Shown in pieces: positions 40,543 through 62,635 of a stretch of 64,000 nucleotides of DNA. The notes below the pieces were generated by a model. It was given only the letters and a program-made list of their open reading frames with translations. It made no database searches and was not told where the DNA came from. A program made the position numbers and the translations under genes. The first letter of the stretch is position 1, and each line of letters starts with the position of its first letter. Source of the stretch: an uncultured Hyphomicrobiales bacterium. Lineage in GTDB: Bacteria > Bacteroidota > Ignavibacteria > Kapaibacteriales > UBA2268. Location of the stretch: the NCBI GenBank assembly GCA_964509335.1, contig CAZDXB010000010.1, positions 3,977 to 67,976 of the forward strand. The letters are read 5' to 3'.

Positions 40543-40546
40543 CGCT

Positions 40547-41608
40547 ATGGAAAATTTACTTATAAAAAGCGATAATATTAAAGGATTAAATTACCTTCTT
40601 GATGAAAGGCGTTTAGAAGGCAAAATTGACTTAGTCTATATTGACCCCCCTTTTGCAATTAGCCGAAATTTTACCATAACAGACAGTAGAGCTTCGACAA
40701 TAAGTAACGCGAGAAACGGTAACATCGCCTACGCCGACAAATTATTGGGAAACGAATTTATAGAATTTCTGCGACAAAGATTAATTCTACTTAAAAAACT
40801 ATTATCGGTAAAAGGCTCAATTTACCTACATACTAATTATAAAATCGGCCATTACGTAAAAGTAATGATGGACGAAGTTTTCGGTCCTAAAAATTTTAGG
40901 AACGACATAACAAGAATAAAATGTAATCCAAAAAATTTCAATCGAGTCGGTTACGGGAATATGAAAGACTTAATTCTGTTTTATTCAAAATCCTCGAGCC
41001 CAATTTGGAACGAACCTAAAGAAAAATATTCACAAAGAGACCTTGAAAAGCTCTTTCCTAAAAAAGACAAACACGGAAGAAGATATACAACCGTGCCAAT
41101 CCATGCTCCGGGAGAAACCGAAAACGGAAAATCAAATCAGCCGTTCAAAGGGATAATGCCGCCCGAGGGAAGACATTGGAGAACCGACGTGGAAACCTTA
41201 GAGCGTTGGGATAAGAAAGGTCTTATCGAGTGGTCGTCATCAGGCAATCCAAGAAAGAAAATCTACGCCGACGAGAGAGAAGGAAAAAGAGTGCAAGATA
41301 TATGGGAATACAAAGACCCTCAATACCCATCATATCCAACTGAAAAAAACGAAAAGATGCTCGATTTAATTATTAGAACATCGTCAAATAAAAACAGTAT
41401 AGTTATAGATTGTTTTTCCGGCTCCGGCGTTACGCTTAAATTAGCACAGATTAACGGTAGAAAATGGATAGGTATAGATGATTCAGAACACGCTATTAAA
41501 GCGTCGATAGAAAAAATTGAGAAAATCGAAGACAATCTATTTGACGAGAAACCTAATTTCAATTACATTGACTTAGAAAAAAAGCGAAGAAGAGAGAAAC
41601 GCGTATAA
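40547..41608 (+). CDS. DNA methyltransferase, beta-class amino-MTase (N6-adenine or N4-cytosine)
   Basis: Motif IV DPPF near the N-terminus (LVYIDPPFA). Motif I DCFSGSGVT near the C-terminus. 353 aa. Confidence 0.8.
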   Translation: MENLLIKSDNIKGLNYLLDERRLEGKIDLVYIDPPFAISRNFTITDSRASTISNARNGNIAYADKLLGNEFIEFLRQRLILLKKLLSVKGSIYLHTNYKIGHYVKVMMDEVFGPKNFRNDITRIKCNPKNFNRVGYGNMKDLILFYSKSSSPIWNEPKEKYSQRDLEKLFPKKDKHGRRYTTVPIHAPGETENGKSNQPFKGIMPPEGRHWRTDVETLERWDKKGLIEWSSSGNPRKKIYADEREGKRVQDIWEYKDPQYPSYPTEKNEKMLDLIIRTSSNKNSIVIDCFSGSGVTLKLAQINGRKWIGIDDSEHAIKASIEKIEKIEDNLFDEKPNFNYIDLEKKRRREKRV

Positions 41609-48922: not shown

Positions 48923-51208
48923 TTGATGGAGAGAAGCGGGGAAGAGCAAAATACGACGTTCGCCCGAGACTTAGGGCTGTTCGACGCTACGATGATAGGC
49001 GTCGGGGCGATGATAGGCGCGGGAATATTTGTGCTTACCGGCATAGCCGCCGGAGAAGCCGGCCCCGCCTCCATTGTAGCCTTCGCTTTAAACGGAGTAG
49101 TTACTTTATTAACCGCATTCTCATACGCCGAACTCGCCTCGGCAATCCCTCGCGCCGGCGGCGGATACTCCTTCGTCCGTATGGCTTTCCCCCGGGCGGT
49201 CGGTTTCGTCGCCGGATGGATGCTATGGTTCGCTTACACAGTAGCTTGTAGCCTCTACGCGCTCGGTTTCGCCGGTTACTTTTGGGAATTTTTCCTTAAA
49301 TATACTCCGAATCTTTCCGGCGGTATATTTAGCGTAATCGGGCATTCGCCTTCAATACTAATCGTAACGCTGATTATCGGAATCGCTTTCGTTTGGCTAA
49401 ACGTCCGAGGCGCCGACGTTACCGGAAGAACGGAAAATATACTGACTATGTCCAAAATCACCATTCTCGCCGTCTTCCTCTTCTTCGGAATCCTGCAAAT
49501 AACCGAAGAGCCGGCGAGAGCGGCGGAGAGCTTCGAACCCTTCTTCCCAAAAGGATTCAACGGCGTCTTAATCGCGATGGGGCTGACATTCATTGCCTTC
49601 GAAGGCTACGACTTAATAGCCACCGTAGCCGAGGAAATCAAAAATCCCGAGAAAAATATACCCAAAGCCACCTTTATTTCCTTAGCCGTTACAATCACTA
49701 TATATTTGCTGATCCTTTTCGTATCGCTCGGAGCGGTCAATCCCGGCGATTTAACTTCTTGGGAATTTCTCGGCAAATACAAAGAAACCGCCATAGTGCG
49801 AGCCGCGGAAGATTTTATGCCCTCGATTGGCGTCGTAGTTATCGTTTTCGGCGGCTTGCTATCGACAATGTCCGCCCTGAACGCCACCGTTATGTCCGCC
49901 TCACGCGTGGCTTTCTCTATGGGCAGAGACAACTGGCTACCTAAAAAAATGGCGTATATCCACCCAAAAAGGCGCACACCCCACGTCGCAATTATTGCGA
50001 CCGGATTCGTTTTATTGGCGATGGCGCTCGCTTTGCCGATTGAGACGGTCGGCTCGGCGGCGAGCTTGATATTTCTGCTGACCTTCGCTTTCGTTAACTT
50101 ATCCGTTATCGTGCTAAGAAGAAAATATCCCGAAGTCCCGCGCAAATACAGAGTCCCTTTTTATCCAATAGCTCCGATTTTGGGCTTTCTGCTCAATATT
50201 TTCCTCGCCGTCTATCAATTCAACTTCCAACCGATAGCGTGGTATATCACAATCGGATGGATTGTGCTTGGGCTGTTATTGTATTACTCCGTCTTCGAAA
50301 AGATAGCTTCCGGCTTCGAACCGAAAGTGTTGATGTCAACCCCCAAAGTAACGCTGTCCGAAAAAACTCCCGCTATAGTGGTCGCCCTTTACAACCCGAA
50401 CAACGCCCGAACCTTATTAAAACTCGCACGCTCCATCGCGAGACAAAAAAATATGCCGATAATAGCGATTAGCGTAATAGTAGTTCCGAGGCAAATGCCG
50501 ATTCACGAGGGGATGCGCTACGCCGAACAAAAGGACGAGCTATTCAACGCCGCTAAAAAATACGCCGAGGAAAACGGCTTCTCAATCGAAACCGACCTCG
50601 TAATAGCGCACGCCGCCTCCGACGGACTGCTCGAAGCAGTCGAAAGACACAACGCCGACACGCTCGTTATGGGCTGGAAGGGCTACACAAGAGCCAAAGA
50701 TAGAATGTTCGGCGAAATAGCGGACAAAATTATAAGATACGTCCCCTGCGATTTAGCGCTTCTGAAAATCGGCGAAGACGCAAGCATTGAAAACTGCCTC
50801 TTCCCCACATCCGGCGGACCAAACGCCAAACTAGCCTCGAAAATTATCGACGGATTGGCCGAAGACAGCGATATGAACATCACCGCAACTTACGTAGCGC
50901 CGGAAAATCCCGATAGCGAGCAAATCGAGTTCGGCGAGAGCAAAATCGACGAGACGCTAAATACGATGAAGAATCGCTCGAAAATAAACAAAAAGCTAAT
51001 CGAAGCGAACTTAATACCCGAAGGCATAACCGAAGCGAGCAAAAACTACGACCTCGTCGTAATCGGCGCGGCTAAAGAATCATTCTTCAGAAAAATGCTC
51101 TTCGGCGAAATACCGGAAAAAGTCGCCCGCAACTCGCCCGCCTCCGTCCTCGTCGTCAAACAATACGAAGGACTCGTAAAAACAGCGATAAAAAGGGTTA
51201 TGGGGTGA
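48923..51208 (+). CDS. APC-superfamily amino-acid permease fused to two C-terminal universal stress protein (UspA) domains
   Basis: 12-TM APC core (GAGIFVLTG, FAY.E...A.P.AGG.Y.F), about 440 aa. Then two UspA-like alpha/beta modules (TLVMGWKG, VLVVKQY). Confidence 0.8.
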   Translation: MMERSGEEQNTTFARDLGLFDATMIGVGAMIGAGIFVLTGIAAGEAGPASIVAFALNGVVTLLTAFSYAELASAIPRAGGGYSFVRMAFPRAVGFVAGWMLWFAYTVACSLYALGFAGYFWEFFLKYTPNLSGGIFSVIGHSPSILIVTLIIGIAFVWLNVRGADVTGRTENILTMSKITILAVFLFFGILQITEEPARAAESFEPFFPKGFNGVLIAMGLTFIAFEGYDLIATVAEEIKNPEKNIPKATFISLAVTITIYLLILFVSLGAVNPGDLTSWEFLGKYKETAIVRAAEDFMPSIGVVVIVFGGLLSTMSALNATVMSASRVAFSMGRDNWLPKKMAYIHPKRRTPHVAIIATGFVLLAMALALPIETVGSAASLIFLLTFAFVNLSVIVLRRKYPEVPRKYRVPFYPIAPILGFLLNIFLAVYQFNFQPIAWYITIGWIVLGLLLYYSVFEKIASGFEPKVLMSTPKVTLSEKTPAIVVALYNPNNARTLLKLARSIARQKNMPIIAISVIVVPRQMPIHEGMRYAEQKDELFNAAKKYAEENGFSIETDLVIAHAASDGLLEAVERHNADTLVMGWKGYTRAKDRMFGEIADKIIRYVPCDLALLKIGEDASIENCLFPTSGGPNAKLASKIIDGLAEDSDMNITATYVAPENPDSEQIEFGESKIDETLNTMKNRSKINKKLIEANLIPEGITEASKNYDLVVIGAAKESFFRKMLFGEIPEKVARNSPASVLVVKQYEGLVKTAIKRVMG
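51128..51208 (+). repeat. Direct repeat copy 1 (the 3-prime end of the permease-Usp gene). Partner copy at 53643..53723.
   Basis: 76/81 nt identical to 53643..53723. Both copies keep the reading frame and end at TGA. Confidence 0.85.
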
Positions 51209-51230
51209 GGTATTGTCCGTTTAAAAAAGT

Positions 51231-51265
51231 ATAAAAAAAGGGAACGCGAAAAACGCGATCCCTTT
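51231..51265 (-). terminator. Rho-independent terminator (minus strand) after the 51288..51872 gene
   Basis: Stem aaagggaacgcg / cgcgatcccttt with loop aaaaa, followed on the minus strand by TTTTTTT. Confidence 0.65.
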
Positions 51266-51287
51266 CTTGTCCGTTAGAGAAAATTAT

Positions 51288-51872
51288 TTAATTCATGATT
51301 CTATCGATTGCAAAGAGAAGCAAATCAGCGCCGCAAAGATTTGTGGAAATGTCAATGACACCTAAATCAACGCCTACACACCAACAAGCGGCATTTGCCT
51401 CGCATCTATGCCCGCAACCGCCAGTGCAACCGGAAAAATCGCCGCCGCTGTTATCGGTCGAAAAACATCTGTCGTATGATTCGGTGAAGGCTTCCAGCGG
51501 AGCGCTTTCAAACTTCTTAATTAAACCGACGACGTTTTTCTCAGCCTTTTTCATCATTTTTCCAATCTTCTCTTCGAATTCTCTCTTGCTTGCGTTCTCC
51601 ATAAAAGCGTAAACCTTCTTGCCTCGATAATTTTCAAAAGAAACGTAATATACCTTTTCCTTTTTATCGAATTTGATATCCCTCTTCAAATCTTCGGTTA
51701 CTTTTCTAAAAGCCTTGCTGATTTTATTCGCGTCAAAATTTTCAGCTAAGTACTTAACGGCTAAATACTGAGCTGGATACACCTTTTGACTTTGAATAGC
51801 GTCGCCTTTCGCGCTAGCTAAGATGGGCGTGAACATAATCGCCGCGAGCGTTAAAATAATTAGTTTTTTCAT
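51288..51872 (-). CDS. Hypothetical secreted protein with a Cys-rich C-terminal segment (start placed at MKKLIIL)
   Basis: Signal peptide MKKLIILTLAAIMFTPILASA. C-terminus C-x12-C-x3-C-x3-C-x5-C-x-C-x15-C. Confidence 0.45.
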   Translation of the reverse strand: MKKLIILTLAAIMFTPILASAKGDAIQSQKVYPAQYLAVKYLAENFDANKISKAFRKVTEDLKRDIKFDKKEKVYYVSFENYRGKKVYAFMENASKREFEEKIGKMMKKAEKNVVGLIKKFESAPLEAFTESYDRCFSTDNSGGDFSGCTGGCGHRCEANAACWCVGVDLGVIDISTNLCGADLLLFAIDRIMN

Positions 51873-51907
51873 AAAACTTCTCCTTTTGGTGTTAAACATT
51901 AAACAAA

Positions 51908-52786
51908 TTATATATCAAAACTCAACGAAAAACATAACGATTGCTCGAGCTGTCTTGTCGCCGAATAATACTTGTCGTATAAAAGACGCATTGAATAATC
52001 TATCTCAAATATATCGTAACGGAGCGAAGAGGAGCCTAAAACGCTAACTCTCGAGTTCTTCAAACTAGTAAACTGGTCTTTTTTGCCTAACGCGTTCGCG
52101 CTAAACGACAGAGAATAAGTTAAATCCTCCACTATTTCTCTATCGTACTCTAGTTCAAACGTCGCGCTATATCCTAATTCCTTAGCCGAATTGACCCTTA
52201 TTTCTTCTCCCTTTTTTAAAGTAAAATCGTCGGTATAAGTCTCCTGATAAGAATAACCGACGCCGTATGTCAAGGATAATCTATTAGAACCGTTTTCCGA
52301 AACGGAGTAATGCTTCTGTCCAATGAATAATGTATTGTAAACAAATAGCGGGTCCATAAAACCTGTCTTCCTATCCCCTATTTTGCCTTCCCCCATTTCG
52401 GTCTCCGCCGTGGTTTCGAAAAAGAGTCTTACTTTAGGAACGTTCCAAATTGTCATAGACGGACATATACTTAATATAAAATCGTCTTGCGTTTTGATCG
52501 GCAACTCCTTTTTATAATGGCTTTGCCCGTAATTCATATACAAATCGACTTTAAAACCAAAGGTCTCGCCTTCCAAATCCAACTTTGATTCCAGCTTAGA
52601 ATTCCACTGCAAACTCTCGTTTTCGTTGCCGGCAGAACTTTCTCCGGAAAAAATCAAACCGGCGGAAGGATTAAATCGAAAATAAACGTCTAATCCTTTT
52701 TCTTCTTCCTCTTCGGCTTTCGCAAAACCGCTAAGCAAGAAGCAAAGCATTAAAGCAAACGTTGTATTTATTTTTGACAACCTCAT
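51908..52786 (-). CDS. Hypothetical outer-membrane beta-barrel protein
   Basis: Signal peptide MRLSKINTTFALMLCFLLSGFAKA. Alternating amphipathic beta-strand pattern. Confidence 0.45.
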   Translation of the reverse strand: MRLSKINTTFALMLCFLLSGFAKAEEEEEKGLDVYFRFNPSAGLIFSGESSAGNENESLQWNSKLESKLDLEGETFGFKVDLYMNYGQSHYKKELPIKTQDDFILSICPSMTIWNVPKVRLFFETTAETEMGEGKIGDRKTGFMDPLFVYNTLFIGQKHYSVSENGSNRLSLTYGVGYSYQETYTDDFTLKKGEEIRVNSAKELGYSATFELEYDREIVEDLTYSLSFSANALGKKDQFTSLKNSRVSVLGSSSLRYDIFEIDYSMRLLYDKYYSATRQLEQSLCFSLSFDI

Positions 52787-52987
52787 AATACAAATATTAA
52801 CAATTATTCATTTTGAAACAAATTTTTATTTAAAAATGAACAGAGTATTAATGTTTTGTAATCAAAACGTTTGCGCAAAAGTATCCTTGCCTTTTAATTG
52901 TCGTAAAAATTTGGACGTTCTATTAAAAAAAACGGAACCCCCAAATAAAATTGAGAGTTCCGCTTAAAAACCATCGCGCGTCGAAAA

Positions 52988-53554
52988 TTACATCTTCACG
53001 AACCTCTTTCCGATTTTCTCGTCGCCGGAATCCAACATTATATAATAAACCCCCGGCGCTAAATCCGAAACGTCCATTCGATAGACGTTCTTTCCTCTTT
53101 GCAAAGATACGCCGAGTTTTTGGCGAACAGTCTCGCCCAAAGAATTATATATATTAACGGCGGTTTCCGTATAAACTTCGCCCGATTTAATTTCCAAATT
53201 TACAATGTCGCTTACGGGATTGGGATTGACGCTCAAAGACAAACCGGAGACAACTCCGCTTTCAACTTTCGCCGGAACGCCCTCGCCCTGAGTTAAAGTA
53301 ATTGTCTTGTTTATTTCGGCAACCTCGAACTTCTCGTAATCGGGAATCTCGCCCGTCCAAGTTACCACAATCGAATCGACGCTCGCGCAATCGCCGAGCC
53401 CGTAATACAGCCTAGCCGGTCTTTGCGACCTGACTCCGTTGCCGGCGGTTACCTCTTGAGTAAACTTTTTATCGCCGTTCCAATACTTCAACGTTTCCGC
53501 TTGGGAAACAACCGTTAACGCAAGAAACGCCAATAAAATCTTCTTTATCATCAT
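52988..53554 (-). CDS. Secreted protein with a T9SS C-terminal sorting domain (type A CTD)
   Basis: Signal peptide. C-terminal about 80 aa carrying the Por-secretion CTD signature (...NIYNSLGETV...GKNVYRMDVSDLAPGVYYIMLDSGDEKIGKRFVKM). Confidence 0.7.
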   Translation of the reverse strand: MMIKKILLAFLALTVVSQAETLKYWNGDKKFTQEVTAGNGVRSQRPARLYYGLGDCASVDSIVVTWTGEIPDYEKFEVAEINKTITLTQGEGVPAKVESGVVSGLSLSVNPNPVSDIVNLEIKSGEVYTETAVNIYNSLGETVRQKLGVSLQRGKNVYRMDVSDLAPGVYYIMLDSGDEKIGKRFVKM

Positions 53555-53642
53555 CCAATATCTCCTAAGATAAACTAAAACTTAACAATGAAATTAATCA
53601 GTTTTGAAAATAAAACTTTTCTATGAAATAGCAAAAAGGCTA

Positions 53643-53723
53643 CGCAACTCGCCTACCTCCGTCCTCGTCGTCAAACAATACGAAGGACTCGTAAAATCAG
53701 CAACAAAAAGGGTTATGGGGTGA
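53643..53723 (+). repeat. Direct repeat copy 2: an orphan in-frame 3-prime gene fragment homologous to the end of the permease-Usp gene
   Basis: Encodes RNSPTSVLVVKQYEGLVKSATKRVMG*, versus RNSPASVLVVKQYEGLVKTAIKRVMG* at the end of the intact gene. Confidence 0.85.
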
Positions 53724-53766
53724 TTTTTATCATAAGGGTTGTAAGACTAGAAAATAAAGTTTATAA

Positions 53767-54885
53767 TTATGCGTGTGAAACAGTTATTTTGTATCGTTTA
53801 TGTAATATTTCGGATAAAGAAATCGCATTCGACCAATTCTCATTATTTTTTATCCAATAATATGATTGAGGCGGTTTTAATTCAGAACCGATTAAATGGT
53901 TGAGCTGAGTTAATGGAATAGGCGCGGTATATCTATTAAAATTCTTAAAAAATATCGAATAAATCTCCTTAGTATCCTTTGTATATTGAAAATATTCTTT
54001 CTCCGAACAAGCAATTTTTTCTTTGTACTTATCCCAAATTAATGTAGGGGGATTTTTCTCTATAGCGTCGATTGTAACATATCCATGTATCTCTTGACTC
54101 GGCTTAGATGAATATAATACCACTTTACAGCCCTTTAGATTTGCATTAAAATATTTGCGAATTTCTACGGTCTTTTCGCCAGACTTAATTTTATCAAAAT
54201 AATCGGGCTTAATACTCATTACTATCCCATTTTGTATATCGTCGTGATACTTAATAAAACGAGAGTTTAATTTAGGCAATTTATTGATAATATTATTCCA
54301 AACAGTATTAAAAGACGCTCTATTAATTAATTCTCGGTCGCCGTTACGATATTCTTTTGTATATTTCGATACATTGTCAAAACCGAAAGATTGGAAAAAA
54401 TCTCTTTTTTCGCTCCAAAGACTTTCAGGAAACGTAAAGAAGATTTGCTTAGCATGTCTCTTTGCGTTGTTAGCCATTAAAGTAAAGAATAATTCGCCTA
54501 AATTATAATTTTGATAATCCTTGTCGATATGCAAATGACAAAATTTAGATAACTCGCCTAGTTTAAGAACGGCAGTGGCAATCGGCAAATTGTCAATATA
54601 ACCAACATAGGCAATTCTTTCGCCGTTTTTAATACCCGGTTTTACTTTATCTTTAAACCAAGTCTTAATATTGGGATAATCAACCTCGTGTCTTTCAATT
54701 AACGCCGCCATATTCAATAATGAATCGTGCTTGAAGTCGATATTATCTTTATCAATAGACTCAATAGTCAAGGTCAACTCTTCTGAAAATAATTCGTAGT
54801 TATTTATTGTTTTCATTTTCTTTCTATTCATCATTCTTTCTCCAATCTTTAAAATATTTAGATAATTGAAGTTCTTGTTCTCCAT
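53767..54885 (-). CDS. GNAT-like acetyltransferase domain fused to a C-terminal ASCH (PUA-like) domain. True start probably the internal Met at about 54816.
   Basis: ASCH signature MSIKPDYFDKIKSGEKTVEIRK (GxKxxExR). N-terminal region with a GNAT-like core (IAYVGYID...LGELFF). Lies in an AT-rich island. Confidence 0.55.
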   Translation of the reverse strand: MENKNFNYLNILKIGERMMNRKKMKTINNYELFSEELTLTIESIDKDNIDFKHDSLLNMAALIERHEVDYPNIKTWFKDKVKPGIKNGERIAYVGYIDNLPIATAVLKLGELSKFCHLHIDKDYQNYNLGELFFTLMANNAKRHAKQIFFTFPESLWSEKRDFFQSFGFDNVSKYTKEYRNGDRELINRASFNTVWNNIINKLPKLNSRFIKYHDDIQNGIVMSIKPDYFDKIKSGEKTVEIRKYFNANLKGCKVVLYSSKPSQEIHGYVTIDAIEKNPPTLIWDKYKEKIACSEKEYFQYTKDTKEIYSIFFKNFNRYTAPIPLTQLNHLIGSELKPPQSYYWIKNNENWSNAISLSEILHKRYKITVSHA

Positions 54886-56116
54886 AACTTGGTTTTTTAT
54901 CTTCGTTCCATTCGTCGAATTTAGACATACGATAAAATTTTAATTTTGCCAATCTCTCTCCGTCCGCTAAAGTTACGTCAACATTATGTCCTCTAACTTC
55001 GAAAATTAAAGGTGTGCCATTTTTCCCGTCATCTCTATGTAAACCAAAATACGGATGCACAAAGCCGGCGTAATGAATTCTCATTTCGCCTAGAGATTCG
55101 TCGATTGCCCTACAATAAACCGCTACTCCTTCAGGCATCGCTATTCTTTCTTTTGACCTTATAATATAAAATTTATCTTTTACTATTTTTAATCTATTGT
55201 TTTTATCAGATTCTACAATATCCCAAAAATCTTCAGGTTTATGTTCTTTTCCAATTAAATCAATAAATTTATCCTCATTATCCTCATTATCGTCTTTCTT
55301 TGAAATAAACGCAGTTGCTTTTTTCCCAACAATGTCAGTTTTAGTTGTATCTACAGATAAATATCCAAGACCATCCTTGCTTCCAATTAAAACATTATTA
55401 AGGAAATCTTCGTCTTTTATTTCAGAATCTTCTGGTTTCCCATAGAAAAATCTTAATTGCGATAATGTCTGATCAGATCTTACTTTTATATTAAAACTTA
55501 TGGGGATAACTTCAAGATACAACTCGCCGGTTGAATCCTTTAAATTCTCCGACTCAAATTCTTCATACTGAGATTCGCCGTCAACTATTAATCGAGCTAG
55601 TACGTCTAATCTTCCAGTTGAGCTTTTCGCTGTCGCTTGACCGTATATATTTTTTAATTTCGCAGTAAGTCTTTCCTTTAATTTAAAAACATAGCATTCC
55701 CCTGCGTATAATTGATAATGTTCATCTTCATTATTCTCATATCTGTCAGAAAGTTCACGATTATTAAGGATTCTTCTATAAGCCTCTTTCCCAAACGGCT
55801 TTATTGACCCTTTTTTCATTTTCCAACATTCATCAGACAATCTCAAATCTACCGATGACTCGTGCCAATCATCCGCCCATTCCTTTTTATCCTCATATTT
55901 TTTTTGGTCGCTTTCTTTTGTAGTAATATCAAAATTGCTTATATAACCGTCGTTATGAAGTTCCTCAAGTTGGGTATGCGATAAAATACCCGGTAACCAA
56001 TGGTTTTCCTCCCAAGGATGTTTTGCCATCTTCTTCCTAAAAAATATTTTTTTTAAACTTTTAACAAAAGATACGAATTTCATAGCAATAAACCAACTTT
56101 TTTCACGATATTTCAA
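54824..56116 (-). CDS. 2-prime-deoxycytidine 5-prime-triphosphate deaminase family protein (DCD, PF06559-like; tandem dUTPase-fold domains). True start probably the internal Met at about 56029.
   Basis: VDLRL... and GRLDVLARLI (compare E. coli Dcd VDLRLG.. and GRSSLARLGL). dUTPase-fold motifs AGFVHPYFG and TPLIFEVRG in the C-terminal half. AT-rich codon usage unlike the neighbours. Confidence 0.55.
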   Translation of the reverse strand: MKYREKSWFIAMKFVSFVKSLKKIFFRKKMAKHPWEENHWLPGILSHTQLEELHNDGYISNFDITTKESDQKKYEDKKEWADDWHESSVDLRLSDECWKMKKGSIKPFGKEAYRRILNNRELSDRYENNEDEHYQLYAGECYVFKLKERLTAKLKNIYGQATAKSSTGRLDVLARLIVDGESQYEEFESENLKDSTGELYLEVIPISFNIKVRSDQTLSQLRFFYGKPEDSEIKDEDFLNNVLIGSKDGLGYLSVDTTKTDIVGKKATAFISKKDDNEDNEDKFIDLIGKEHKPEDFWDIVESDKNNRLKIVKDKFYIIRSKERIAMPEGVAVYCRAIDESLGEMRIHYAGFVHPYFGLHRDDGKNGTPLIFEVRGHNVDVTLADGERLAKLKFYRMSKFDEWNEDKKPSYGEQELQLSKYFKDWRKNDE

Positions 56117-56200
56117 CTCAATAGTAACTCGCTGACATACAACTAATTACTATTCTCAAATTTAGAATTGCGAAAATGCATAGTAATTCGTAATTGAATA

Positions 56201-57742
56201 TCACTCCCACTCAATCGTTCCCGGCGGCTTGCTCGTTACGTCGTAAACGACGCGGTTGATTCCGGATATTTCGTTGACGATTCTGTCGCTCGCCTTCGCC
56301 AAAACGTCGTAGGGCATATTGAACCAATCGGCGGTCATCCCGTCCACGCTCGTAACCGCCCGCAAGGCGCAGACGCATTCGTATGTGCGCTCGTCGCCCA
56401 TAACGCCGACGCTCTTCACCGGCAACAACACCGCGAACGCCTGCCATATATCGTTATAAAGCCCCGCCGAGCGTATTTCTTCTATAAATATATCGTCGGC
56501 GCGACGCAAAATATCCAGCCGCTCCTTCGTTACCTCGCCGAGTATCCTAATAGCCAAGCCGGGACCGGGAAAAGGATGCCGCTCGATAAACCACTTCGGA
56601 ACGCCAAGCTCAGCGCCCACGGCTCTCACCTCGTCCTTGAACAGCTCTCTGAACGGTTCCAAGAGCTTCAGATTCATTCGCTCCGGCAAACCGCCGACGT
56701 TGTGATGCGACTTTATCGTAGCCGAAGGTCCCTTGACCGACACCGATTCGATTACGTCGGGATACAGCGTCCCCTGCGCCAGCCATTGAACGTCCGCGAG
56801 CGATTCGGCTTCCTTCTCGAACGCCTCTATAAATTTCGCCCCGATTATTTTGCGCTTCTTCTCTGGGTCGGCGACGCCCGATAGCTCGCTCAAAAACAAA
56901 TCCGACGCGTCCACGAAATCGACGGGAATATCGAACGACTCGCGAAATAGCTTTACAATCATTTCGCTCTCCTTCAAACGCATAACGCCCGTATCGACGT
57001 GAACGCAATGAAGCCTGTCGCCGATAGCCTCGTGAAGCAATACCGCCGCGACGGTTGAATCTACGCCGCCGCTCAAAGCTAAAATAACTTTTTCGTCGCC
57101 GACTTTCTCCCTGATTTCCTCTTTTTTGCTCTCGGCGAAGGAAGCCGCGTTCCAAGTCCCCTTGCAATCGCAAATGTTTCTGACGAAGTTATTTAATATC
57201 TTCCGCCCCTCGACCGTGTGATGCACTTCGGGATGAAACTGCACGCCGAAATTCATTTTATCGCTCGACCTGACGGCGCAAACGGGCGAATTTGCGGAAT
57301 AAGCGATAATCTCAAAGCCGTCCGGCGGCTCCACTAGCGCGTCGCCGTGGCTCATCCATACGATTGAATTAGGCTTTACGCCGGAAAACAAATCATCGTC
57401 GGAATCTATATATAATTCCGCCCTGCCGTATTCCCTGCGCGCCGCTTTATCCACTTTTCCGCCGAGCTGATAAGCGAGAAGTTGCAAACCGTAGCAAATC
57501 CCCAAAACGGGAACGCCCAAATCGAAAACGTCGAACGAAGGCAACGGAGCATCCTCGGCGTAAACGCTCGAAGGACCGCCCGAAAGGATAAGCCCGTTCG
57601 GCTCTAAACTTAACAATTCCTCTTTTGAAATATTATACGGATAAATTTCGCCGTAAACTCCGCTCTCTCGGACTTTTCGGGCTATCAATTGGGTGTATTG
57701 AGAGCCGAAGTCCAATACGATAATTTTCTCGGTAAGTTCCAT
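56201..57742 (-). CDS. guaA: GMP synthase (glutamine-hydrolysing)
   Basis: N-terminal GATase (ILSGGPSSV, catalytic Cys in GICYG). ATP-pyrophosphatase SGGVDS. Conserved C-terminal KPPGTIEWE. 513 aa. Confidence 0.95.
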   Translation of the reverse strand: MELTEKIIVLDFGSQYTQLIARKVRESGVYGEIYPYNISKEELLSLEPNGLILSGGPSSVYAEDAPLPSFDVFDLGVPVLGICYGLQLLAYQLGGKVDKAARREYGRAELYIDSDDDLFSGVKPNSIVWMSHGDALVEPPDGFEIIAYSANSPVCAVRSSDKMNFGVQFHPEVHHTVEGRKILNNFVRNICDCKGTWNAASFAESKKEEIREKVGDEKVILALSGGVDSTVAAVLLHEAIGDRLHCVHVDTGVMRLKESEMIVKLFRESFDIPVDFVDASDLFLSELSGVADPEKKRKIIGAKFIEAFEKEAESLADVQWLAQGTLYPDVIESVSVKGPSATIKSHHNVGGLPERMNLKLLEPFRELFKDEVRAVGAELGVPKWFIERHPFPGPGLAIRILGEVTKERLDILRRADDIFIEEIRSAGLYNDIWQAFAVLLPVKSVGVMGDERTYECVCALRAVTSVDGMTADWFNMPYDVLAKASDRIVNEISGINRVVYDVTSKPPGTIEWE

Positions 57743-57750
57743 TAGCTCTA

Positions 57751-58632
57751 TTATTCAATATTCTGAATTTGCTCTCTAATCCGCTCCACTTCTTCTTTCA
57801 TATAAACGACTTGTTTCTGTATTTCGGCGTCGTTGCATTTGGAACCGATAGTGTTTACTTCGCGGTGCATTTCCTGAAGCAGAAAATTCATCTTTTTGCC
57901 GACGGGTTCTTGTTTTCTCGACTTCAACATTTCGTTGAAAAACTTAACGTGCGAGAGCATTCTGACGCACTCCTCGGAAATGTCCAGCTTGTCGGCGAGT
58001 AGCGCTATTTCCATTTGCAAGCGCTGTTCGTCGATTTCCTCCGTTTCGAAAAGTTGCGCTATCTTCATTCTTAACTTTTCTCGCTCTTCAGGTATTTTAT
58101 TAACGCCTAAAGCGTCCACTTCTTCAACCTTATTTTTTATTTTCCTAACTCTCGCCGTCAAATCCTTGGCTATTCTTCTGCCTTCGTTCTTTCGCATATT
58201 ATCCAAAGAAGTCAAGGCTTTGTTCAAAGCGGACTTCACGGGCCTCCACTCAATTTCCGACGCTTCGTCGTCTTTTCTCTCGTAAAAATCGCCTGAAAAC
58301 TCAAGCAGATGATCGATTTTAACGGCTTCTCTAAGTTTTAATTTACTCTTAAGATTTTTCAAATCTTCAAAGCATCTCTTCGCCGCTGCGTAATTCAACT
58401 TTAACGGGAAAGCGCCTTCTTCGTAATCTATCGTCGCGCTAATAAAAACCGAACCTCTTTCCAGCTTATTGCCAATCATATCCCTGATGTCAAATTCCCG
58501 ATGCGATAAAGATCTAGGAATCTTGCAATTGATATCTAGGTATCTTCCGTTAAGGCTTTTCAATTCTACCGTCGCCGAGACTCCTTTTTCCTTAGTTTGG
58601 ACTCTGCTATATCCTGTCATACTTTTAATCAT
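57751..58632 (-). CDS. yicC: YicC-family stress-induced protein (start placed at MIKSMTGY)
   Basis: Canonical YicC N-terminus M(I)KSMTGY. C-terminal DUF1732 with EMHREVNTIGSK. Confidence 0.85.
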   Translation of the reverse strand: MIKSMTGYSRVQTKEKGVSATVELKSLNGRYLDINCKIPRSLSHREFDIRDMIGNKLERGSVFISATIDYEEGAFPLKLNYAAAKRCFEDLKNLKSKLKLREAVKIDHLLEFSGDFYERKDDEASEIEWRPVKSALNKALTSLDNMRKNEGRRIAKDLTARVRKIKNKVEEVDALGVNKIPEEREKLRMKIAQLFETEEIDEQRLQMEIALLADKLDISEECVRMLSHVKFFNEMLKSRKQEPVGKKMNFLLQEMHREVNTIGSKCNDAEIQKQVVYMKEEVERIREQIQNIE

Positions 58633-58693
58633 AACGCTTCGTCTTTTTGTTAGTAAATAAAAACGCAAAGATAGCTAATTTTTAACTTTTAAC

Positions 58694-59236
58694 CTATAGC
58701 TCTTGATTTCTATATTGGGAGCTATAATTCACGTAATTAACCGAATGACGCGTAATTGCCTGCAATTCCTCGTTTGTTAAATCGCGGACGACTTTCGCGG
58801 GAATTCCCGCTACCAACTTGCCGTTGGGAACGGTAAATCCTTCCTTAACGACCGCCCCCGCGGCTACAATAGAGTAGGAGCGAACTTGGGCGCCGTCTAT
58901 AATTGTCGCGCTCGCGCCTATCAAGCAATTGTCGGCTATCGTCGCCCCGTGCAGGGTCGCCGAATGCCCAACAGTTACTTTCTTACCTATCGTCAGAGGG
59001 AATTTCTTCCGCGTTACGTGAAGCATACACAAATCCTGAATATTCGTCTGCTTCCCGATTCTAATATAATTGACGTCGCCGCGAATAACCGAGTTGAACC
59101 AAACCGAGCAATCCTCGTCAATCTCGACGTCGCCGATTATTCTAACGCCTTCGGCTAAAAACGCCGACGGATGAATTTTAGGCTCTTTGCCCTTAAAAGC
59201 TATTAAACTGCCGCTCTTTCCGGTTTCTATTTTCAT
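58694..59236 (-). CDS. Gamma-class carbonic anhydrase / hexapeptide-repeat (LbH) family protein
   Basis: Left-handed beta-helix hexapeptide repeats. Conserved IHP.AF....V..IGDV.I...CS.W and H.........IG. 180 aa. Confidence 0.8.
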   Translation of the reverse strand: MKIETGKSGSLIAFKGKEPKIHPSAFLAEGVRIIGDVEIDEDCSVWFNSVIRGDVNYIRIGKQTNIQDLCMLHVTRKKFPLTIGKKVTVGHSATLHGATIADNCLIGASATIIDGAQVRSYSIVAAGAVVKEGFTVPNGKLVAGIPAKVVRDLTNEELQAITRHSVNYVNYSSQYRNQEL

Positions 59237-59261
59237 ATCTAAAAAATGATTTATTTAACAT

Positions 59262-60512
59262 CTACCAAGGGATTACTTTATTCATTGGCGTTTCGTCCAA
59301 CCTTAAAACTCCAAATCTTTCGGTTAGAGGAAAAAGAATATTCGGTCCCGGAGACGCTGCCGGTCGCAACCGCAAAGGCGGAGCTTCCGACAAAGACATC
59401 ATCCTTCTTACGTCGCCCCTTTTGCTTAAAAAAAACAATCCGTAAGCGGCGTCGCTCGCTCCGCAAAACGAAATTTCATTTTCGCCTATCATCACGGGCG
59501 AAGGAACGGCGGCTTCAAAACTTTTGTCCCAAATCTTCTCGCCCTTTTTGTTCAGCTTTATTATCTGACTGATAGGCGTTCCAAAACCAGAGTTATAAGC
59601 GACAACGTATAAATCCCCGTTCTCGGCGGCGGAAATAAATCTAGGCATTTGAGCGAAACCTTTCTTCCAAATAAGTTCTCCCGACAAATCCAAAGCGTAT
59701 AAAGCCGGGAACTTTTCGCCGCCTTTATACTCGACGCCCGAAAAATATATCCGCTTGGAGTTTATTATCGGCGGTTTGACTATTCGCGCGCCCTCAAAAC
59801 TTTTCCTCCAAATCTCTTCGCCTTTGGAGTTGATATAAAGCAAAGTATCCGTTTCGCCGTATAAATTGTGCGTCAGCGGAAGAACGACATTCTCGCCGTT
59901 ATAAGAAGGAAAATAAGAAAGAATCGACATATCTTTATTCATCCCCCAAAGTCGCTCGCCTTCGAACGAATACATAGCGATTACTCCGTCGGTTGAAGCC
60001 GCTATAATTCCGTCGTTCAAAGCCAGCAAATCGGAAAAGACTGTAATGTTCTCGCCGACCTTCGTATGTCGCTTCTTCCACCTCAAATCGCCGTTTTTAG
60101 AGAAAGAGTAAAGCTTGCCGTCGTTATCTATCGCGTATATATTCTGCTTTTTATCCGCCGCCATCCCAGCCGCTACGACGAAGCTCGAATCCAGTTGGGC
60201 GGTCCACTTCAAAATCTCTTCGTCGATAAGCGAAATGGAACCGTCGGCGCAAGGATAGACGGTTTTAAAGCTGGAAAGCGAAAGTAGCGGAGCTATAACT
60301 CCTTTGTCCTTTTTTGATTCAACGGTATCTATAACGTATAATTCGCGGTAAAAATCGCCGAATCGCTCAAAGGAATTATCCCTCGCGCCTCCGCCGTATA
60401 AATTAACTAGTTCGCCCTCCAAACTCTTCTCAAAATTGCAAGAAGTTATCAGAGTCAGAGCCAAAATAACCTTACCGACTATAAGGAGCGACTTTCTTCT
60501 TTCGCTAAACAT
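59262..60512 (-). CDS. PQQ-like beta-propeller repeat lipoprotein (BamB-like)
   Basis: Lipoprotein signal ...LTLITSC. Repeated WK/W-containing beta-propeller blades (GELIWKK, GERLWG, GEEIWRK, GEKIWDK). Confidence 0.65.
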   Translation of the reverse strand: MFSERRKSLLIVGKVILALTLITSCNFEKSLEGELVNLYGGGARDNSFERFGDFYRELYVIDTVESKKDKGVIAPLLSLSSFKTVYPCADGSISLIDEEILKWTAQLDSSFVVAAGMAADKKQNIYAIDNDGKLYSFSKNGDLRWKKRHTKVGENITVFSDLLALNDGIIAASTDGVIAMYSFEGERLWGMNKDMSILSYFPSYNGENVVLPLTHNLYGETDTLLYINSKGEEIWRKSFEGARIVKPPIINSKRIYFSGVEYKGGEKFPALYALDLSGELIWKKGFAQMPRFISAAENGDLYVVAYNSGFGTPISQIIKLNKKGEKIWDKSFEAAVPSPVMIGENEISFCGASDAAYGLFFLSKRGDVRRMMSLSEAPPLRLRPAASPGPNILFPLTERFGVLRLDETPMNKVIPW

Positions 60513-60634
60513 AAACTCTCCGAATATTTTCTCGTTAAGATAACAAATTAATATATACAAAAATATCGTTAAGAAAAATAAATTCTAAATTAATAAACGA
60601 TTTAAAAACAGATGATATATTCAAGATTAAATAA

Positions 60635-62395
60635 ATGAATAAAAAATTAAAAAGAGCTATGCCAAAAATTAATTTAGAAAAAGTTATAACGGAAAAGTTC
60701 GATTTGAAGAGCCGAATAGGTTCTTTGGCGCTAGCGAATGCATTGTTGAAAGCGATAATCAAAACAACTCGCGTAAACGAAATAAATTATGTATTGAATA
60801 AATATTCCGATAAAAAGAATTTTGACTTTATAGACGAAATCTTTGAATACCTTGACTTTAGCTATTCAGTTTCGCGCAAGCACAAGTTGCGAATACCTTC
60901 GGAAGGCAAACTGATTCTCGTATCGAATCATCCAATAGGCGGGCTCGACGCTTTAGCTATACTAAACGTCGTTGGCGAAGTTAGAAACGACATAAAGTTC
61001 ATAGCGAACGACTTACTGCTGAATTTGCATAACTTATCGGACTTGTTCTTGCCCTTCGACATCTTCACCAAAAAAAATTATCTCAAGAACTTAAAAGGAA
61101 TAAACGAACACTTAAACAAAGAAGGCGTTCTGGCAATATGCCCAGCGGCGAAAGTTTCAAGATTATCTTTTAAGGGAATCAAAGATTCAAAATGGCTCAA
61201 CGGAGCCGTCAAACTAGCCAAAAGGCACAAAGCCCCCATTTTGCCCGTTTACGTAAAAACCAGAAATTCTTTATCGTTCTACGTAGCGTCGATGATTTAC
61301 AAAAATCTTTCGACCGCTATGTTGCCGAGAGAGATTTTCAACCAAAAATCAAAAACAATCGGCATAAAAATCGGACGCCAAATTCCGGCGGAAATTCTCA
61401 AAAAAAAGTCGAATGTTTCCGACGACGAGCTAAGCAAAATGCTCAGAAAACACGTTTACAGATTAGGCAAAGGAAAAAAAGTCGTTTTCAAAACCGATAG
61501 CAACATAATTCATCCGGTAAATCCCAAGATCCTAAAGAGCGATTTACTTAATTCCGAAATCTTAGGCGAAACCAAGGACGGCAAAAAAATCTTCCTAGCG
61601 GATTTTGAACGCTCTCCAAACGCTATCAAGGAAATATCCAGATTAAGAGAAATAACTTTCCGCAAGGTAGGCGAAGGAACTGGCAAAAAAGCCGACTTGG
61701 ACGAGTATGACAGATATTTCAAACACATAGTTTTATGGGATAACAAAGACTTAGAAATCGTCGGTTCCTACAGAATCGGAGTCGGCAAAGATATTGTAAA
61801 GAATAAAGGATTACAGGGCTTTTACAATGCTTCCCTATTTTTATTAGACGAAAGATTTAAGGAAAAAGCCGAAAAAGGTATAGAACTCGGTAGAAGCTTT
61901 ATACAGCAAAAATATTGGAAAACCGCCGCTCTTGATTATCTCTGGCAAGGTATCGGAGCTTATTTATCAAATCGCTCCGGAGCGAGATACTTGTTTGGAG
62001 CGGTCAGCATTAGCGCCGCTTATTCTAAATTCGCCACCCAGCTGATTGTCTATTATTATAAAAAGTGGTATAACTTCGGCGCCAAATTCGCAAAAGCAAA
62101 AACGCCCTATAAAATCAACGAACGAACCGAGAACGAACTCTCTAATATCTTCGTAGAAAATTCGCCGGAAAAAGACTTCCGCATCCTAAAATCCTCTCTT
62201 AGGAACCTTGGGTTTACAACGCCGGTTCTCTTTAGAAAGTACGTGGACATTTGCGCGCTAGGCGGCGCCGAATTCGTCGATTTCAACGTCGATGAAAATT
62301 TCAACAATTGCGTTGACGGCTTTATCATTCTCGACCTCAAAATGATTAAAAAAGAAAAAAGAAAAAGATACTACGCCGCGCCAGACGCCGTATAA
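60635..62395 (+). CDS. Bifunctional OlsF-like acyltransferase: N-terminal lysophospholipid (PlsC-type) O-acyltransferase + C-terminal OlsB/hemolysin-like N-acyltransferase (ornithine/glycine lipid synthase type)
   Basis: H(x4)D motif VSNHPIGGLDA. C-terminal GNAT-like OlsB-type domain (LWDNKDLEIVGSYRIG...GRSFIQQKYW). 586 aa. Confidence 0.7.
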   Translation: MNKKLKRAMPKINLEKVITEKFDLKSRIGSLALANALLKAIIKTTRVNEINYVLNKYSDKKNFDFIDEIFEYLDFSYSVSRKHKLRIPSEGKLILVSNHPIGGLDALAILNVVGEVRNDIKFIANDLLLNLHNLSDLFLPFDIFTKKNYLKNLKGINEHLNKEGVLAICPAAKVSRLSFKGIKDSKWLNGAVKLAKRHKAPILPVYVKTRNSLSFYVASMIYKNLSTAMLPREIFNQKSKTIGIKIGRQIPAEILKKKSNVSDDELSKMLRKHVYRLGKGKKVVFKTDSNIIHPVNPKILKSDLLNSEILGETKDGKKIFLADFERSPNAIKEISRLREITFRKVGEGTGKKADLDEYDRYFKHIVLWDNKDLEIVGSYRIGVGKDIVKNKGLQGFYNASLFLLDERFKEKAEKGIELGRSFIQQKYWKTAALDYLWQGIGAYLSNRSGARYLFGAVSISAAYSKFATQLIVYYYKKWYNFGAKFAKAKTPYKINERTENELSNIFVENSPEKDFRILKSSLRNLGFTTPVLFRKYVDICALGGAEFVDFNVDENFNNCVDGFIILDLKMIKKEKRKRYYAAPDAV

Positions 62396-62635
62396 ACGGA
62401 ACATATAAATTGTTTGAATCGTCCAACCCTTAACGCTAATATATCTTTGGAAGCGATAAAAATTATCTTTTTAATCAAAAACTTATTAGCATAATTTTAA
62501 CTTGTCGCAAAAATCAATTAAGTTTATAAAAGAAAGGCTATGAATAATTAACATTAAATTAACAAATGCTTTGCAATCAAATAACATTTGTTTCGTAAGT
62601 TTGTTATTGAGTTTTTTCATTAATAGGATACGCTT

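Follow-up and report, generated by a model that had tools for sequence, protein, structure and literature searches.

Background

Several integrative elements restore the 3' end of the gene into which they insert: SGI1 at trmE, ICESt1/3 at fda, elements at guaA, and SCCmec at rlmH/orfX. Passengers without an integrase, mobilised in trans, are known as well, among them pseudo-SCC elements and composite SCC arrays. The locus described here lies in a stretch of 64 kb, the whole of which we call the window, and indeed it shares several features with such elements. Direct repeats that include the end of the target gene flank an insert, the gene itself is intact, and a further foreign block follows immediately behind the second repeat. 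Unlike those elements, the block here has no recombinase, either within it or among the 48 large ORFs scanned, and there is no third repeat; the block is native in composition and not found elsewhere, its site is unused in 86 relatives, and neither an empty site nor a circle junction is known.

A different route, displacement, has been proposed for rhs 'orphan' C-termini and for the T6SS effector-immunity arrays of Vibrio cholerae (PMC5361080, which cites de Vries & Wackernagel 2002, Prudhomme 2002 and Meier & Wackernagel 2003). The likeness to our locus would be close: an incoming block of which one side is anchored through homology to a conserved gene and the opposite side is joined illegitimately, an old 3' piece that now lies downstream as an orphan with its orientation unchanged, no involvement of an integrase, and a donor that is a related strain (here by our reconstruction). 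There are also differences. In the rhs/T6SS systems variation affects the 3' coding region of a toxin gene together with an immunity gene, whose retention is selected, whereas here the displaced piece is the near-identical end of a housekeeping-type transporter gene and what varies is the downstream intergenic neighbourhood. Further, those systems form arrays, while here there would be a single displacement with reconstructed parental arrangements.

Results

A repeat search of the window returned exactly two copies of an 81-nt sequence, in the same orientation, spaced by 2515 nt and identical at 76/81 positions, with mismatches at repeat positions 12, 13, 55, 60 and 62 (Table 1). This is the duplication of the 3' end of the permease-Usp gene that the first-pass annotation had reported, and the coordinates agree. 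Copy 1, the end of the gene, reads RNSPASVLVVKQYEGLVKTAIKRVMG and then the stop; copy 2 reads RNSPTSVLVVKQYEGLVKSATKRVMG and then the stop. The reported changes in copy 2 (A>T, T>S and I>T, with frame and TGA kept) are all there, plus two synonymous ones. The homology ends on the right exactly at TGA, past which the sequences are unrelated (P=0.6-1.0), and on the left at a codon boundary.

Table 1. Features of the permease-guaA interval (positions are those of the window)
Feature	Position	Strand	Details
Amino-acid permease with two Usp domains, 760 aa	48926..51208	+	Gene with duplicated 3' end; Pfam AA_permease_2 1.6e-62, Usp 2.2e-28 (2 stretches)
Repeat copy 1	51128..51208	+	Functional last 26 codons and TGA of the permease-Usp gene
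Identical 41-nt stretch	51141-51181, partner 53656-53696	+	From mismatch positions and pattern search
Bidirectional intrinsic terminator	51233..51268	.	GGGAACGCG/CGCGATCCC hairpin, A-run on one side, T-run on the other
Enclosed gene 1, 194 aa (203 aa from upstream ATG)	51288..51872	-	Signal-like N-terminus, Cys-rich C-terminal part
Enclosed gene 2, 292 aa	51908..52786	-	Signal-like N-terminus; weak DUF3078 match 8e-4; GC 0.39
Terminator-like hairpin 3' of the 188-aa gene	52930..52965	-	15 pairs, then T-run
Enclosed gene 3, 188-aa secreted protein	52988..53554	-	Por_Secre_tail 1.9e-12, UnbV_ASPIC 6e-10 (Pfam), TIGR04183 6.6e-9
AT-rich spacer, 88 nt	53555..53642	.	From start of the 188-aa gene to the orphan
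Repeat copy 2	53643..53723	+	Orphaned permease 3' end, 26 codons and TGA, unattached to a gene
GNAT + ASCH protein, 354 aa	53767..54831	-	Pfam ASCH 1.6e-7; PADLOC PDC-M11B 2.4e-26, PDC-M11A 3e-6
DCD-type (dCTP-deaminase-like) protein, 401 aa	54824..56029	-	Pfam DCD 2.4e-31, DCD_C 3e-29, DCD_N 3.4e-25
guaA (GMP synthase)	56201..57742	-	Pfam GATase 3.7e-47, GMP_synt_C 7.4e-46

A 40-nt core pattern, allowing up to 3 mismatches, occurs 2 times in the window versus 0 in 100 shuffles. An identical run of 41 nt is expected in 15% of cases when five differences are placed at random (P=0.15), and it is therefore not evidence of a recombination core. Frame and stop likewise both survive five random substitutions in 70% of cases (P=0.70), so that it does not follow from their being intact, as had been argued earlier, that copy 2 is not a decayed remnant. 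Both copies carry Asn in ARNSP, Gln in VKQYEG and Ala after VK[TS], lineage-specific residues that occur singly but never all together among the homologues listed. Given these shared residues and 94% identity, copy 2 derives from this genome itself or from one very closely related to it, and not from a distant element.

The C-terminus of the permease-Usp protein is strongly conserved among 80+ homologues, and an NCBI record has an identical protein (P0001), encoded on a 94-kb contig. Behind copy 1 the gene shares its terminator with the convergent 203-aa gene. For the 79-nt interval 51209-51287 ViennaRNA gives -17.5 kcal/mol on the plus and -19.1 kcal/mol on the minus strand, the main stem being the terminator hairpin, while no comparable structure is predicted after copy 2 (0 to -2 kcal/mol). 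The arrangement of copy 1 and its terminator is that of an ordinary native gene junction; no terminator follows copy 2.

Copy 2 lies within a 39-codon, TTG-initiated ORF (53604-53723) for which no obvious ribosome-binding site can be read from the sequence. It has Thr where all the homologue C-termini listed have a hydrophobic residue, which suggests relaxed constraint, as for an unconstrained remnant, and this orphan presumably has no function of its own. Its left end, between 53642 and 53643, is an abrupt and presumably illegitimate junction. The DNA left of the orphan shows marginal colinear similarity to permease sequence further left (P about 0.01-0.04); a protein-profile test found no such similarity there (-0.7 bits, rank 592 of 1558).

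Two Logan contigs, assembled independently and from other sequencing runs, match the window at 100% identity: L087 (SRR7048219, seen in 2 samples) over 51152-53685 and L091 (SRR7048228) over 53667-60907. The inner junctions and the junction of copy 2 with the AT-rich DNA are therefore real DNA and not the product of a single assembly. On each side these k=31 contigs break off 30 nt into the 41-nt core, as expected for a repeat.

The enclosed block (51288-53554) answers to its earlier description: all three genes are on the minus strand, all three products have a hydrophobic, signal-like N-terminus as read from the sequence, and the 188-aa protein carries a T9SS C-terminal sorting domain next to its UnbV_ASPIC domain. 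The first protein, called at 194 aa in L087 too, has weak matches only (DUF6488 9e-4, TIGR04117 0.003). The second is a probable outer-membrane beta-barrel and is the one block protein that the homologue search covered. Among 5.8 billion proteins it has two homologues only, at ~40% identity and with unrelated neighbours; judged by these matches, it is not from a circulating element. With GC 0.39-0.46 and GC3 0.43-0.55 (0.41 and 0.46 for the first gene, 0.46 and 0.55 for the third), the enclosed genes are within the native range of the window.

The sole compositionally foreign segment is the one that abuts copy 2. As noted earlier, GC drops from 53724, the very next base after the repeat, and falls to 0.31-0.35 across 53724-56200; GC3 in this cassette is 0.26-0.31 versus 0.34-0.64 elsewhere in the window. 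The 354-aa gene has the lowest GC in the window (0.31, GC3 0.31), and the GNAT match of its product (Acetyltransf_10, 1e-4) scores 22.7 bits, just under the Pfam cut-off of 23.6 bits. The 401-aa gene overlaps its start (GC 0.34, GC3 0.26), and its product matches NCBIfam PRK07559 at 4.6e-54, below the cutoff of that model. The pair recurs in unrelated contexts (contigs L093-L097), in L093 beside a large serine recombinase, and L092 probably carries it too, with an upstream ORF that is cut by the contig end and unannotated. It is a conserved two-gene cassette that by its sequence matches corresponds to the candidate defence system PDC-M11, with a predicted role in defence. It is like the small defence cassettes between convergent core genes (PADLOC PDC-M11) in that the pair matches PDC-M11A/B and forms a compact two-gene unit; it is unlike them in that the DCD-like partner has no PADLOC model match and the cassette neighbours the orphan and does not lie between the repeats. 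The variable interval is closed by guaA, a core gene convergent with the permease gene. On the guaA side no third repeat copy was found, not even a degenerate one, and the proposal of a tandem island array at one att site fails on this point.

A domain scan bore out the statement that the enclosed interval has no integrase, and across the window none of the 48 ORFs of at least 120 aa was found to be a tyrosine or serine recombinase, a transposase or an integrase. When 86 related permease-Usp loci were compared, the gene end recurred within 10 kb at none of them, and no integrase family is among the 25 families most matched by 124 downstream ORFs. On these comparisons the permease 3' end is not a recurrent insertion target. 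Among viral and metagenome contigs the degenerate core pattern had no match. No collection offered a relative closer than 79% amino-acid identity, and this one shows no synteny; no related genome with either parental arrangement was found.

Discussion

Since the block sits between the working 3' end and an orphaned copy, an insertion or displacement at the 3' end of this gene did happen. To this extent the earlier reading is supported; its other part, that the repeats are attL and attR, finds no support, given that no recombinase was found in the ORFs scanned, the native composition of the cargo, the lack of a second gene end at 86 loci, and a core and frame within chance expectation.

Tentatively, and at slightly less than an even chance, we regard the 81-bp repeat as a recombination scar and not a recombination site. 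Two close relatives, about 6% diverged here, would have differed directly past the permease-Usp stop codon: in one, the terminator and then the three genes for secreted or outer-membrane proteins followed the permease gene; in the other, the AT-rich DCD/GNAT-ASCH cassette and then guaA. A linear DNA fragment of one lineage would have entered the other, with homologous recombination on one side and illegitimate joining on the other. By this process, known as homology-facilitated illegitimate recombination or 'displacement', one block would come to lie beside the other and not take its place. Of one permease allele, the last 26 codons would be left stranded as the orphan, while the gene keeps an intact end and its terminator. 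In one direction, the incoming fragment would have carried the permease gene and the three genes, with its anchor in the permease gene, and the resident gene end and the AT-rich cassette would have been displaced downstream. In the other, it would have carried the orphan and the cassette, with guaA as its anchor and the joint upstream of the 188-aa gene. Both directions would yield an identical structure. This reading builds on observed features, namely the repeat with its exact boundaries, junctions that are real DNA, a lack of mobility genes among the ORFs scanned and the pattern of composition; from these we infer the donor-recipient history and the enzymology (RecA-type exchange, end-joining).

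Several observations speak for displacement. The orphan begins abruptly on its left, at an arbitrary point within the coding sequence, and ends on its right at the stop, where the neighbourhoods diverge. The lineage-specific residues that the two copies share fit a close relative as the source. There is no recombinase or transposase in the 48 large ORFs, the enclosed genes are native, and none of the 86 loci has a second copy. The terminator follows copy 1 only, and the orphan has Thr at a hydrophobic position. An orphaned 3' fragment behind a new block matches the displacement model (PMC5361080; PMC3240628). On the other side, such recombination is rare (PMC5361080), and neither parental arrangement was found among relatives, so that the history is a reconstruction. 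The two lineages must also differ from the first base past TGA, which an element-borne gene end would explain equally well, and the marginal similarity on the left, if real, would mean an orphan of greater age and length than expected from a clean one-step junction.

That the block is a degenerate or in-trans-mobilised integrative module is, in our opinion, unlikely. Its attP would have borne the permease 3' end, and a tyrosine or serine recombinase encoded elsewhere would have crossed over in the shared core, giving copy 1 as attL and copy 2 as attR. Same-orientation repeats flanking a block, with the gene restored in frame through its stop, are what such an event leaves; homology that ends at the stop fits an element that keeps the coding part of the gene end alone, and the target shows the high conservation across phyla that is typical of att targets. 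A 2,515-bp circle is equally compatible with the k=31 assembly graph, and the L093 cassette beside its serine recombinase indicates that small cassettes can travel with such enzymes. However, the 64 kb hold no recombinase among the large ORFs scanned, the 292-aa protein, the only one of this native-like block that was searched, is essentially unique, the 86 relatives have neither a second gene end nor a recurrent integrase there, viral and metagenome contigs lack the core pattern, the claimed array has no third repeat, and the identical core and intact frame are within chance expectation.

An insertion of the Campbell type dispenses with a dedicated recombinase, which fits the scan, but we consider it improbable. 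A fragment from a close relative, made up of the 81-bp permease end, the terminator and the three genes, would have been circularised illegitimately and integrated by a single RecA-mediated crossover in the 81-bp homology, duplicating it on both sides. As in known integrations of this type, the homologous segment is doubled as direct repeats with allelic differences either side of an identical stretch, and both the native-like composition and the lineage-specific residues common to the two copies fit a close donor. Unlike in those, there is no sign of a circular intermediate, and at 81 bp, of which 41 form the identical stretch, the homology is very short; two rare steps are needed, illegitimate circle formation and a crossover within that homology, besides the uptake of a non-replicating 2.5-kb circle. 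The sequence does not tell it apart from one-step displacement. A local origin would suit the position of the orphan, exactly at the left border of the sole segment of foreign composition, as well as the lineage-specific residues in both copies and the lack of a known donor lineage. The 81 bp would have been copied within the genome, either as templated filler in a repair event that accompanied insertion of the AT-rich cassette or by tandem duplication with replacement of the second unit, and the copies would then have diverged by 6%. We find this distinctly improbable: it would be a coincidence for a copied segment to run from a codon boundary precisely to the stop, tandem duplication should have left another terminator and another 203-aa gene after copy 2, both of which are absent, and 6% divergence needs a useless fragment to persist for long without indels. 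Least credible to us, and very improbable, is a mis-resolved assembly in which the true molecules are the permease gene joined through the core to the AT-rich cassette and a separate 2,515-bp circle or tandem unit. The Logan k=31 contigs do end inside the core, and the pairing of left and right halves is not shown by them. Yet the distinguishing mismatches are only 41 nt apart, and ordinary reads, like any assembler k >41, should resolve the pairing. A circle of 2.5 kb that carries three genes for secreted proteins but none for replication is implausible, and the DNA at 4/4 half-junctions has been confirmed to be real.

All in all, the locus looks like a one-off recombination scar where the DNA between two core genes varies, rather than like a self-contained mobile island bounded by attachment sites, and an insertion scar is an ordinary kind of feature.

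Extent and sequence of the repeat

The 3' end of the permease-Usp gene occurs twice in the window, in the same orientation. A repeat search of the window returned the direct repeat that the first-pass annotation had described, 81 nt long with 76 of 81 positions identical and with the two starts 2,515 nt apart, and found only these two copies. The five differences fall at repeat positions 12, 13, 55, 60 and 62, and the longest identical run is 41 nt (51141-51181 and 53656-53696). Left of this core the copies are told apart by CCCGCC (51139-40) versus CCTACC (53654-55), right of it by ACAGCGATA (51182-51189) versus TCAGCAACA (53697-53704). A 40-nt pattern of the core, with up to three mismatches allowed, occurs twice in the window and not once in 100 shuffles. 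The left edge of the repeat is a codon boundary; on the right the homology stops exactly at the TGA, and the flanks beyond it are unrelated (P=0.6-1.0).

Copy 2, which we call the orphan, does keep the frame and the TGA as had been reported, its 26 residues differing from those of copy 1 by A>T, T>S and I>T. We disagree, however, that this can serve as an argument about its history, since frame and stop survive five random substitutions in 70% of simulations. In the same way we set aside an argument from selection on the orphan: frame and stop stay intact with a probability of 0.70, and about 46% of the intact outcomes have three or fewer amino-acid changes. Five randomly placed differences leave a run of 41 or more identical nt with a probability of 0.15. 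Where the orphan has Thr, each of the homologue C-termini listed has a hydrophobic residue, which looks like relaxed constraint. Both copies have the Asn in ARNSP, the Gln in VKQYEG and the Ala after VK[TS], a combination absent from the homologues listed. The orphan also lies inside a 39-codon ORF (53604-53723, plus strand) with a TTG start just after an in-frame TAA and no obvious ribosome-binding site, which is probably not a gene.

At 53642/53643 the identity drops from 94% to background. Further left, 53595-53642 resembles 51077-51127 over some 45 nt (identity about 67%, net gap 3 nt). Three DNA tests give P of about 0.01-0.04, while the translation of this stretch scores -0.7 bits against a profile of the 18 matching columns of the family and ranks 592 among 1,558 places in the window. 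With the DNA tests marginal and the family-profile test null, we do not count this similarity as homology and regard a longer, decayed orphan as unproven. Genuine homology here would imply an orphan of greater age and length, with gene conversion or repeated exchange required to account for the sharp step from 67% to 94%.

Coordinates of the locus, of matching Logan assembly contigs and of other features (window positions)
Feature	Positions	Strand	Remarks
Permease-Usp gene	48926-51208	+	760-aa protein; amino-acid-permease domain and two Usp domains
Repeat copy 1	51128-51208	+	in-frame end of the permease-Usp protein
194/203-aa protein	51288-51872 (194 aa); 51288-51899 (203 aa)	-	between the copies; signal-like N-terminus, Cys-rich tail
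292-aa protein	51908-52786	-	between the copies; weak DUF3078 match, probable outer-membrane protein
188-aa protein	52988-53554	-	between the copies; UnbV_ASPIC and T9SS sorting domain
Repeat copy 2, orphaned 3' fragment of the permease-Usp gene	53643-53723	+	26 codons plus stop, behind the three-gene block, same orientation
GNAT + ASCH protein, 354 aa	53767-54831	-	PADLOC candidate-defence models PDC-M11B (2.4e-26) and PDC-M11A (3e-6)
DCD-type dCTP-deaminase-like protein, 401 aa	54824-56029	-	genes of the pair (53767-56029) overlap
guaA	56201-57742	-	
Contig L087, run SRR7048219	51152-53685		2,534 bp, present in 2 samples; 100% identity
Contig L088, run SRR7048225	51307-52856		100% identity
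Contig L091, run SRR7048228	53667-60907		100% identity
Palindromic repeats, each about 31 nt	1573, 1623, 39581, 39632, 47517, 47587, 47622		intergenic; consensus approximately CTAATTCCCAAATTGAAATTTGGGAATTAGG
29-nt unit, two tandem copies	17280-17337		93% identical, intergenic
Separate methylase gene	29211-30164		
Type II restriction-modification pair	39760-41608		GC 0.36-0.38; Tsp45I-family endonuclease (9e-124) and N4/N6 DNA methylase
Tandem paralogous genes, Acyltransf_2 + GNAT Acetyltransf_5	60635-62395; about 62612-64000		76-88% DNA identity, offset 1,977 nt; the second runs past the window end

Junctions in independent assemblies

Every half-junction of the locus is confirmed as real DNA by the Logan contigs. 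An assembly artefact was rejected as the source of the junctions, because three other runs yielded L087, L088 and L091, which match the window over their ranges at full identity. The Logan contigs that end at the repeat break exactly 30 nt (k-1, k=31) inside the identical core; contig breaks inside a 41-nt repeat are usual for a de Bruijn graph. The length of L087 equals the repeat spacing plus 19 nt exactly, and its two ends therefore overlap. Taken alone, the k=31 graph fits an integrated block and a 2,515-bp circle equally. A literature search for the run accessions of these contigs gave no match.

The two blocks downstream of the permease gene

As the first-pass annotation had it, the content between the copies is all minus-strand, namely three genes. 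Directly 3' of copy 1 stands a strong bidirectional terminator hairpin, common to the permease gene and to the convergent gene for the 203-aa protein; the 79-nt interval that holds it folds to -17.5 / -19.1 kcal/mol, and there is no comparable structure after copy 2. The enclosed genes have a GC of 0.39-0.46 and a GC3 of 0.43-0.55, inside the window ranges of 0.36-0.53 and 0.34-0.64, and so do not have a composition distinct from that of the host. An exact-protein look-up of the 188-aa protein gave no match on record, and a search of 5.8 billion proteins gave only two homologues of the 292-aa protein, at about 40% identity and with unrelated neighbours. The 203-aa secreted protein has a Cys-rich end segment, GCTGGCGHRCEANAACWC, and weakly resembles the 'Cys-Xaa-Xaa-Xaa repeat radical SAM target' family (E=0.003); there was no radical SAM enzyme among the window ORFs scanned.

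Starting directly behind the orphan's TGA and reaching to the guaA stop codon, there is a block with a GC of about 0.31-0.35. The composition outliers are the two genes of this cassette only (GC about 0.31-0.34, GC3 0.26-0.31). The GNAT + ASCH protein matches both of its PADLOC models as if they were fused, and has about 130 homologues; the DCD-like protein has no PADLOC match, and PDC-M11 receives only a passing mention in the literature, in one unrelated paper. Judged by sequence, the pair is a candidate defence module. Its gene order is conserved in three other unrelated contexts (among L093-L095 and L096-L097) and probably in a fourth, L092, whose upstream ORF is cut by the contig end and is without annotation. 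In L093 the cassette adjoins a 618-aa large serine recombinase, and in L096 it sits between housekeeping-type genes with no mobility gene adjacent. Around the cassette in other genomes there are no flanking repeats of note.

Relatives of the locus

The closest relatives of the permease in a search of 5.8 billion proteins have 79% and 75% amino-acid identity, the latter labelled Kapabacteriales UBA2268; in genome contigs the identity is 70% at most. The contigs of the 79% and 75% relatives have no synteny with the window on either side and no neighbours in common with it. The search for an empty site was confined to relatives at this distance and yielded none. Exact-protein look-ups of the permease, with two start choices and with P0001 (the permease protein identical in an NCBI record), found nothing on record. 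None of 86 loci encoding permease relatives (61-79% identity) has the gene end a second time within 10 kb, in a test that recovered the window's own repeat as positive control.

Origin of the repeat

The repeat is the trace of an insertion or displacement that did take place where the permease gene ends. In our opinion it is best explained, still tentatively, as the scar of a one-sided homologous recombination. Work on rhs genes and on Vibrio T6SS effector-immunity arrays (PMC5361080; PMC3240628) describes a "displacement" route in which homology anchors one side of the DNA that enters from a related strain, the other side is joined illegitimately, and the old 3' piece is shifted downstream and not replaced. 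The apparently abrupt internal left boundary, the divergence beyond the stop and the lack of a mobility gene fit this route, and the orphan lies where such a scar is expected, behind the three-gene block and in the same orientation. Given that the copies are 94% identical and share a residue combination, the source of copy 2 would be this genome or a very close relative, and, indirectly, a donor would have been close enough to provide the homologous anchor. Two lineages would then have differed after the permease stop codon, one having the terminator and the three secreted-protein genes and the other the AT-rich cassette and guaA. Either could be the incomer: the three-gene block with its anchor in the permease gene, or the cassette with its anchor in guaA. 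The sequence alone is compatible with both. Purely local copying of the gene end, with this genome as its own source, seems to us improbable. We regard the Campbell type of event, a single crossover of a circularised fragment, as quite unlikely. It is very improbable that the repeat was simply mis-resolved in assembly: the pairing of left and right junctions does rest on the window's own assembly, and it should be readable by ordinary reads because the diagnostic mismatches are just 41 nt apart.

The first-pass annotation had preferred an integrative element with its attL and attR. Direct repeats containing the 3' end of the target gene do flank the block, as it claimed. We nevertheless consider site-specific integration by a recombinase acting in trans unlikely. 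No integrase, resolvase or transposase family was found by Pfam in the five genes between the permease gene and guaA, in agreement with the earlier claim, nor in the 43 other ORFs of the window (in total 48 ORFs, each at least 120 aa long); the scan covered these 64 kb of a 94-kb contig of a metagenome-assembled genome. The composition of the enclosed genes is native, the site is not reused at the 86 loci, and integrase families are absent among the 25 most-matched families of 124 ORFs just downstream in about 60 relatives. A wobble-degenerate 39-nt pattern of the core, which covers both copies in any arrangement, had no matches in viral and metagenome contigs. The window has no tRNA or tmRNA genes, and at the site Rfam gives nothing beyond a SurA match over the terminator, which is insignificant (E=0.1; 18.5 bits versus a cutoff of 100 bits). 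The suggestion of a tandem island array fares no better: two islands need at least three repeat copies, the window has just two, and neither copy finds a third where the AT-rich block meets guaA (local alignment with 56001-56260, P=0.31-0.34). None of the tests speaks for an integrative island, self-contained or tandem. It is also conceivable, and in our view decidedly doubtful, that the permease-Usp 3' end is a genuine attachment site to which integrase-less modules were added successively, the cassette and then the three-gene block, by a recombinase encoded elsewhere, each supplying a gene end and the outermost repeat having been lost.

Other features of the window

The palindromic repeats are often paired, 35-70 nt apart, and look like REP-type elements; two of them stand directly upstream of the restriction-modification genes. 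The low-GC restriction-modification pair is a second small compositionally foreign block. The 29-nt tandem repeat is flanked by the gene for a short-chain dehydrogenase (16460-17206) and by pnp (17586-19796), which is convergent with that gene.

Implications

The locus is best classed as a further instance of a recombination scar of known kind, at a place of variable content that two convergent core genes enclose. If site-specific integration were the correct explanation, the locus would instead provide a new protein-gene att site and an SCC-like, integrase-less accretion system in an uncultured lineage of the FCB group. If the displacement explanation is correct, a gene end that is duplicated and still readable does not on its own indicate an integrase-driven island, which calls for caution with islands predicted from repeats only. 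The interval between the permease gene and guaA is a variable spot in a poorly sampled lineage, and the practical value of this is modest. As a displacement scar, it would be a clean non-toxin example of one-sided homologous recombination that adds a gene block beside the neighbour's block and does not replace it.
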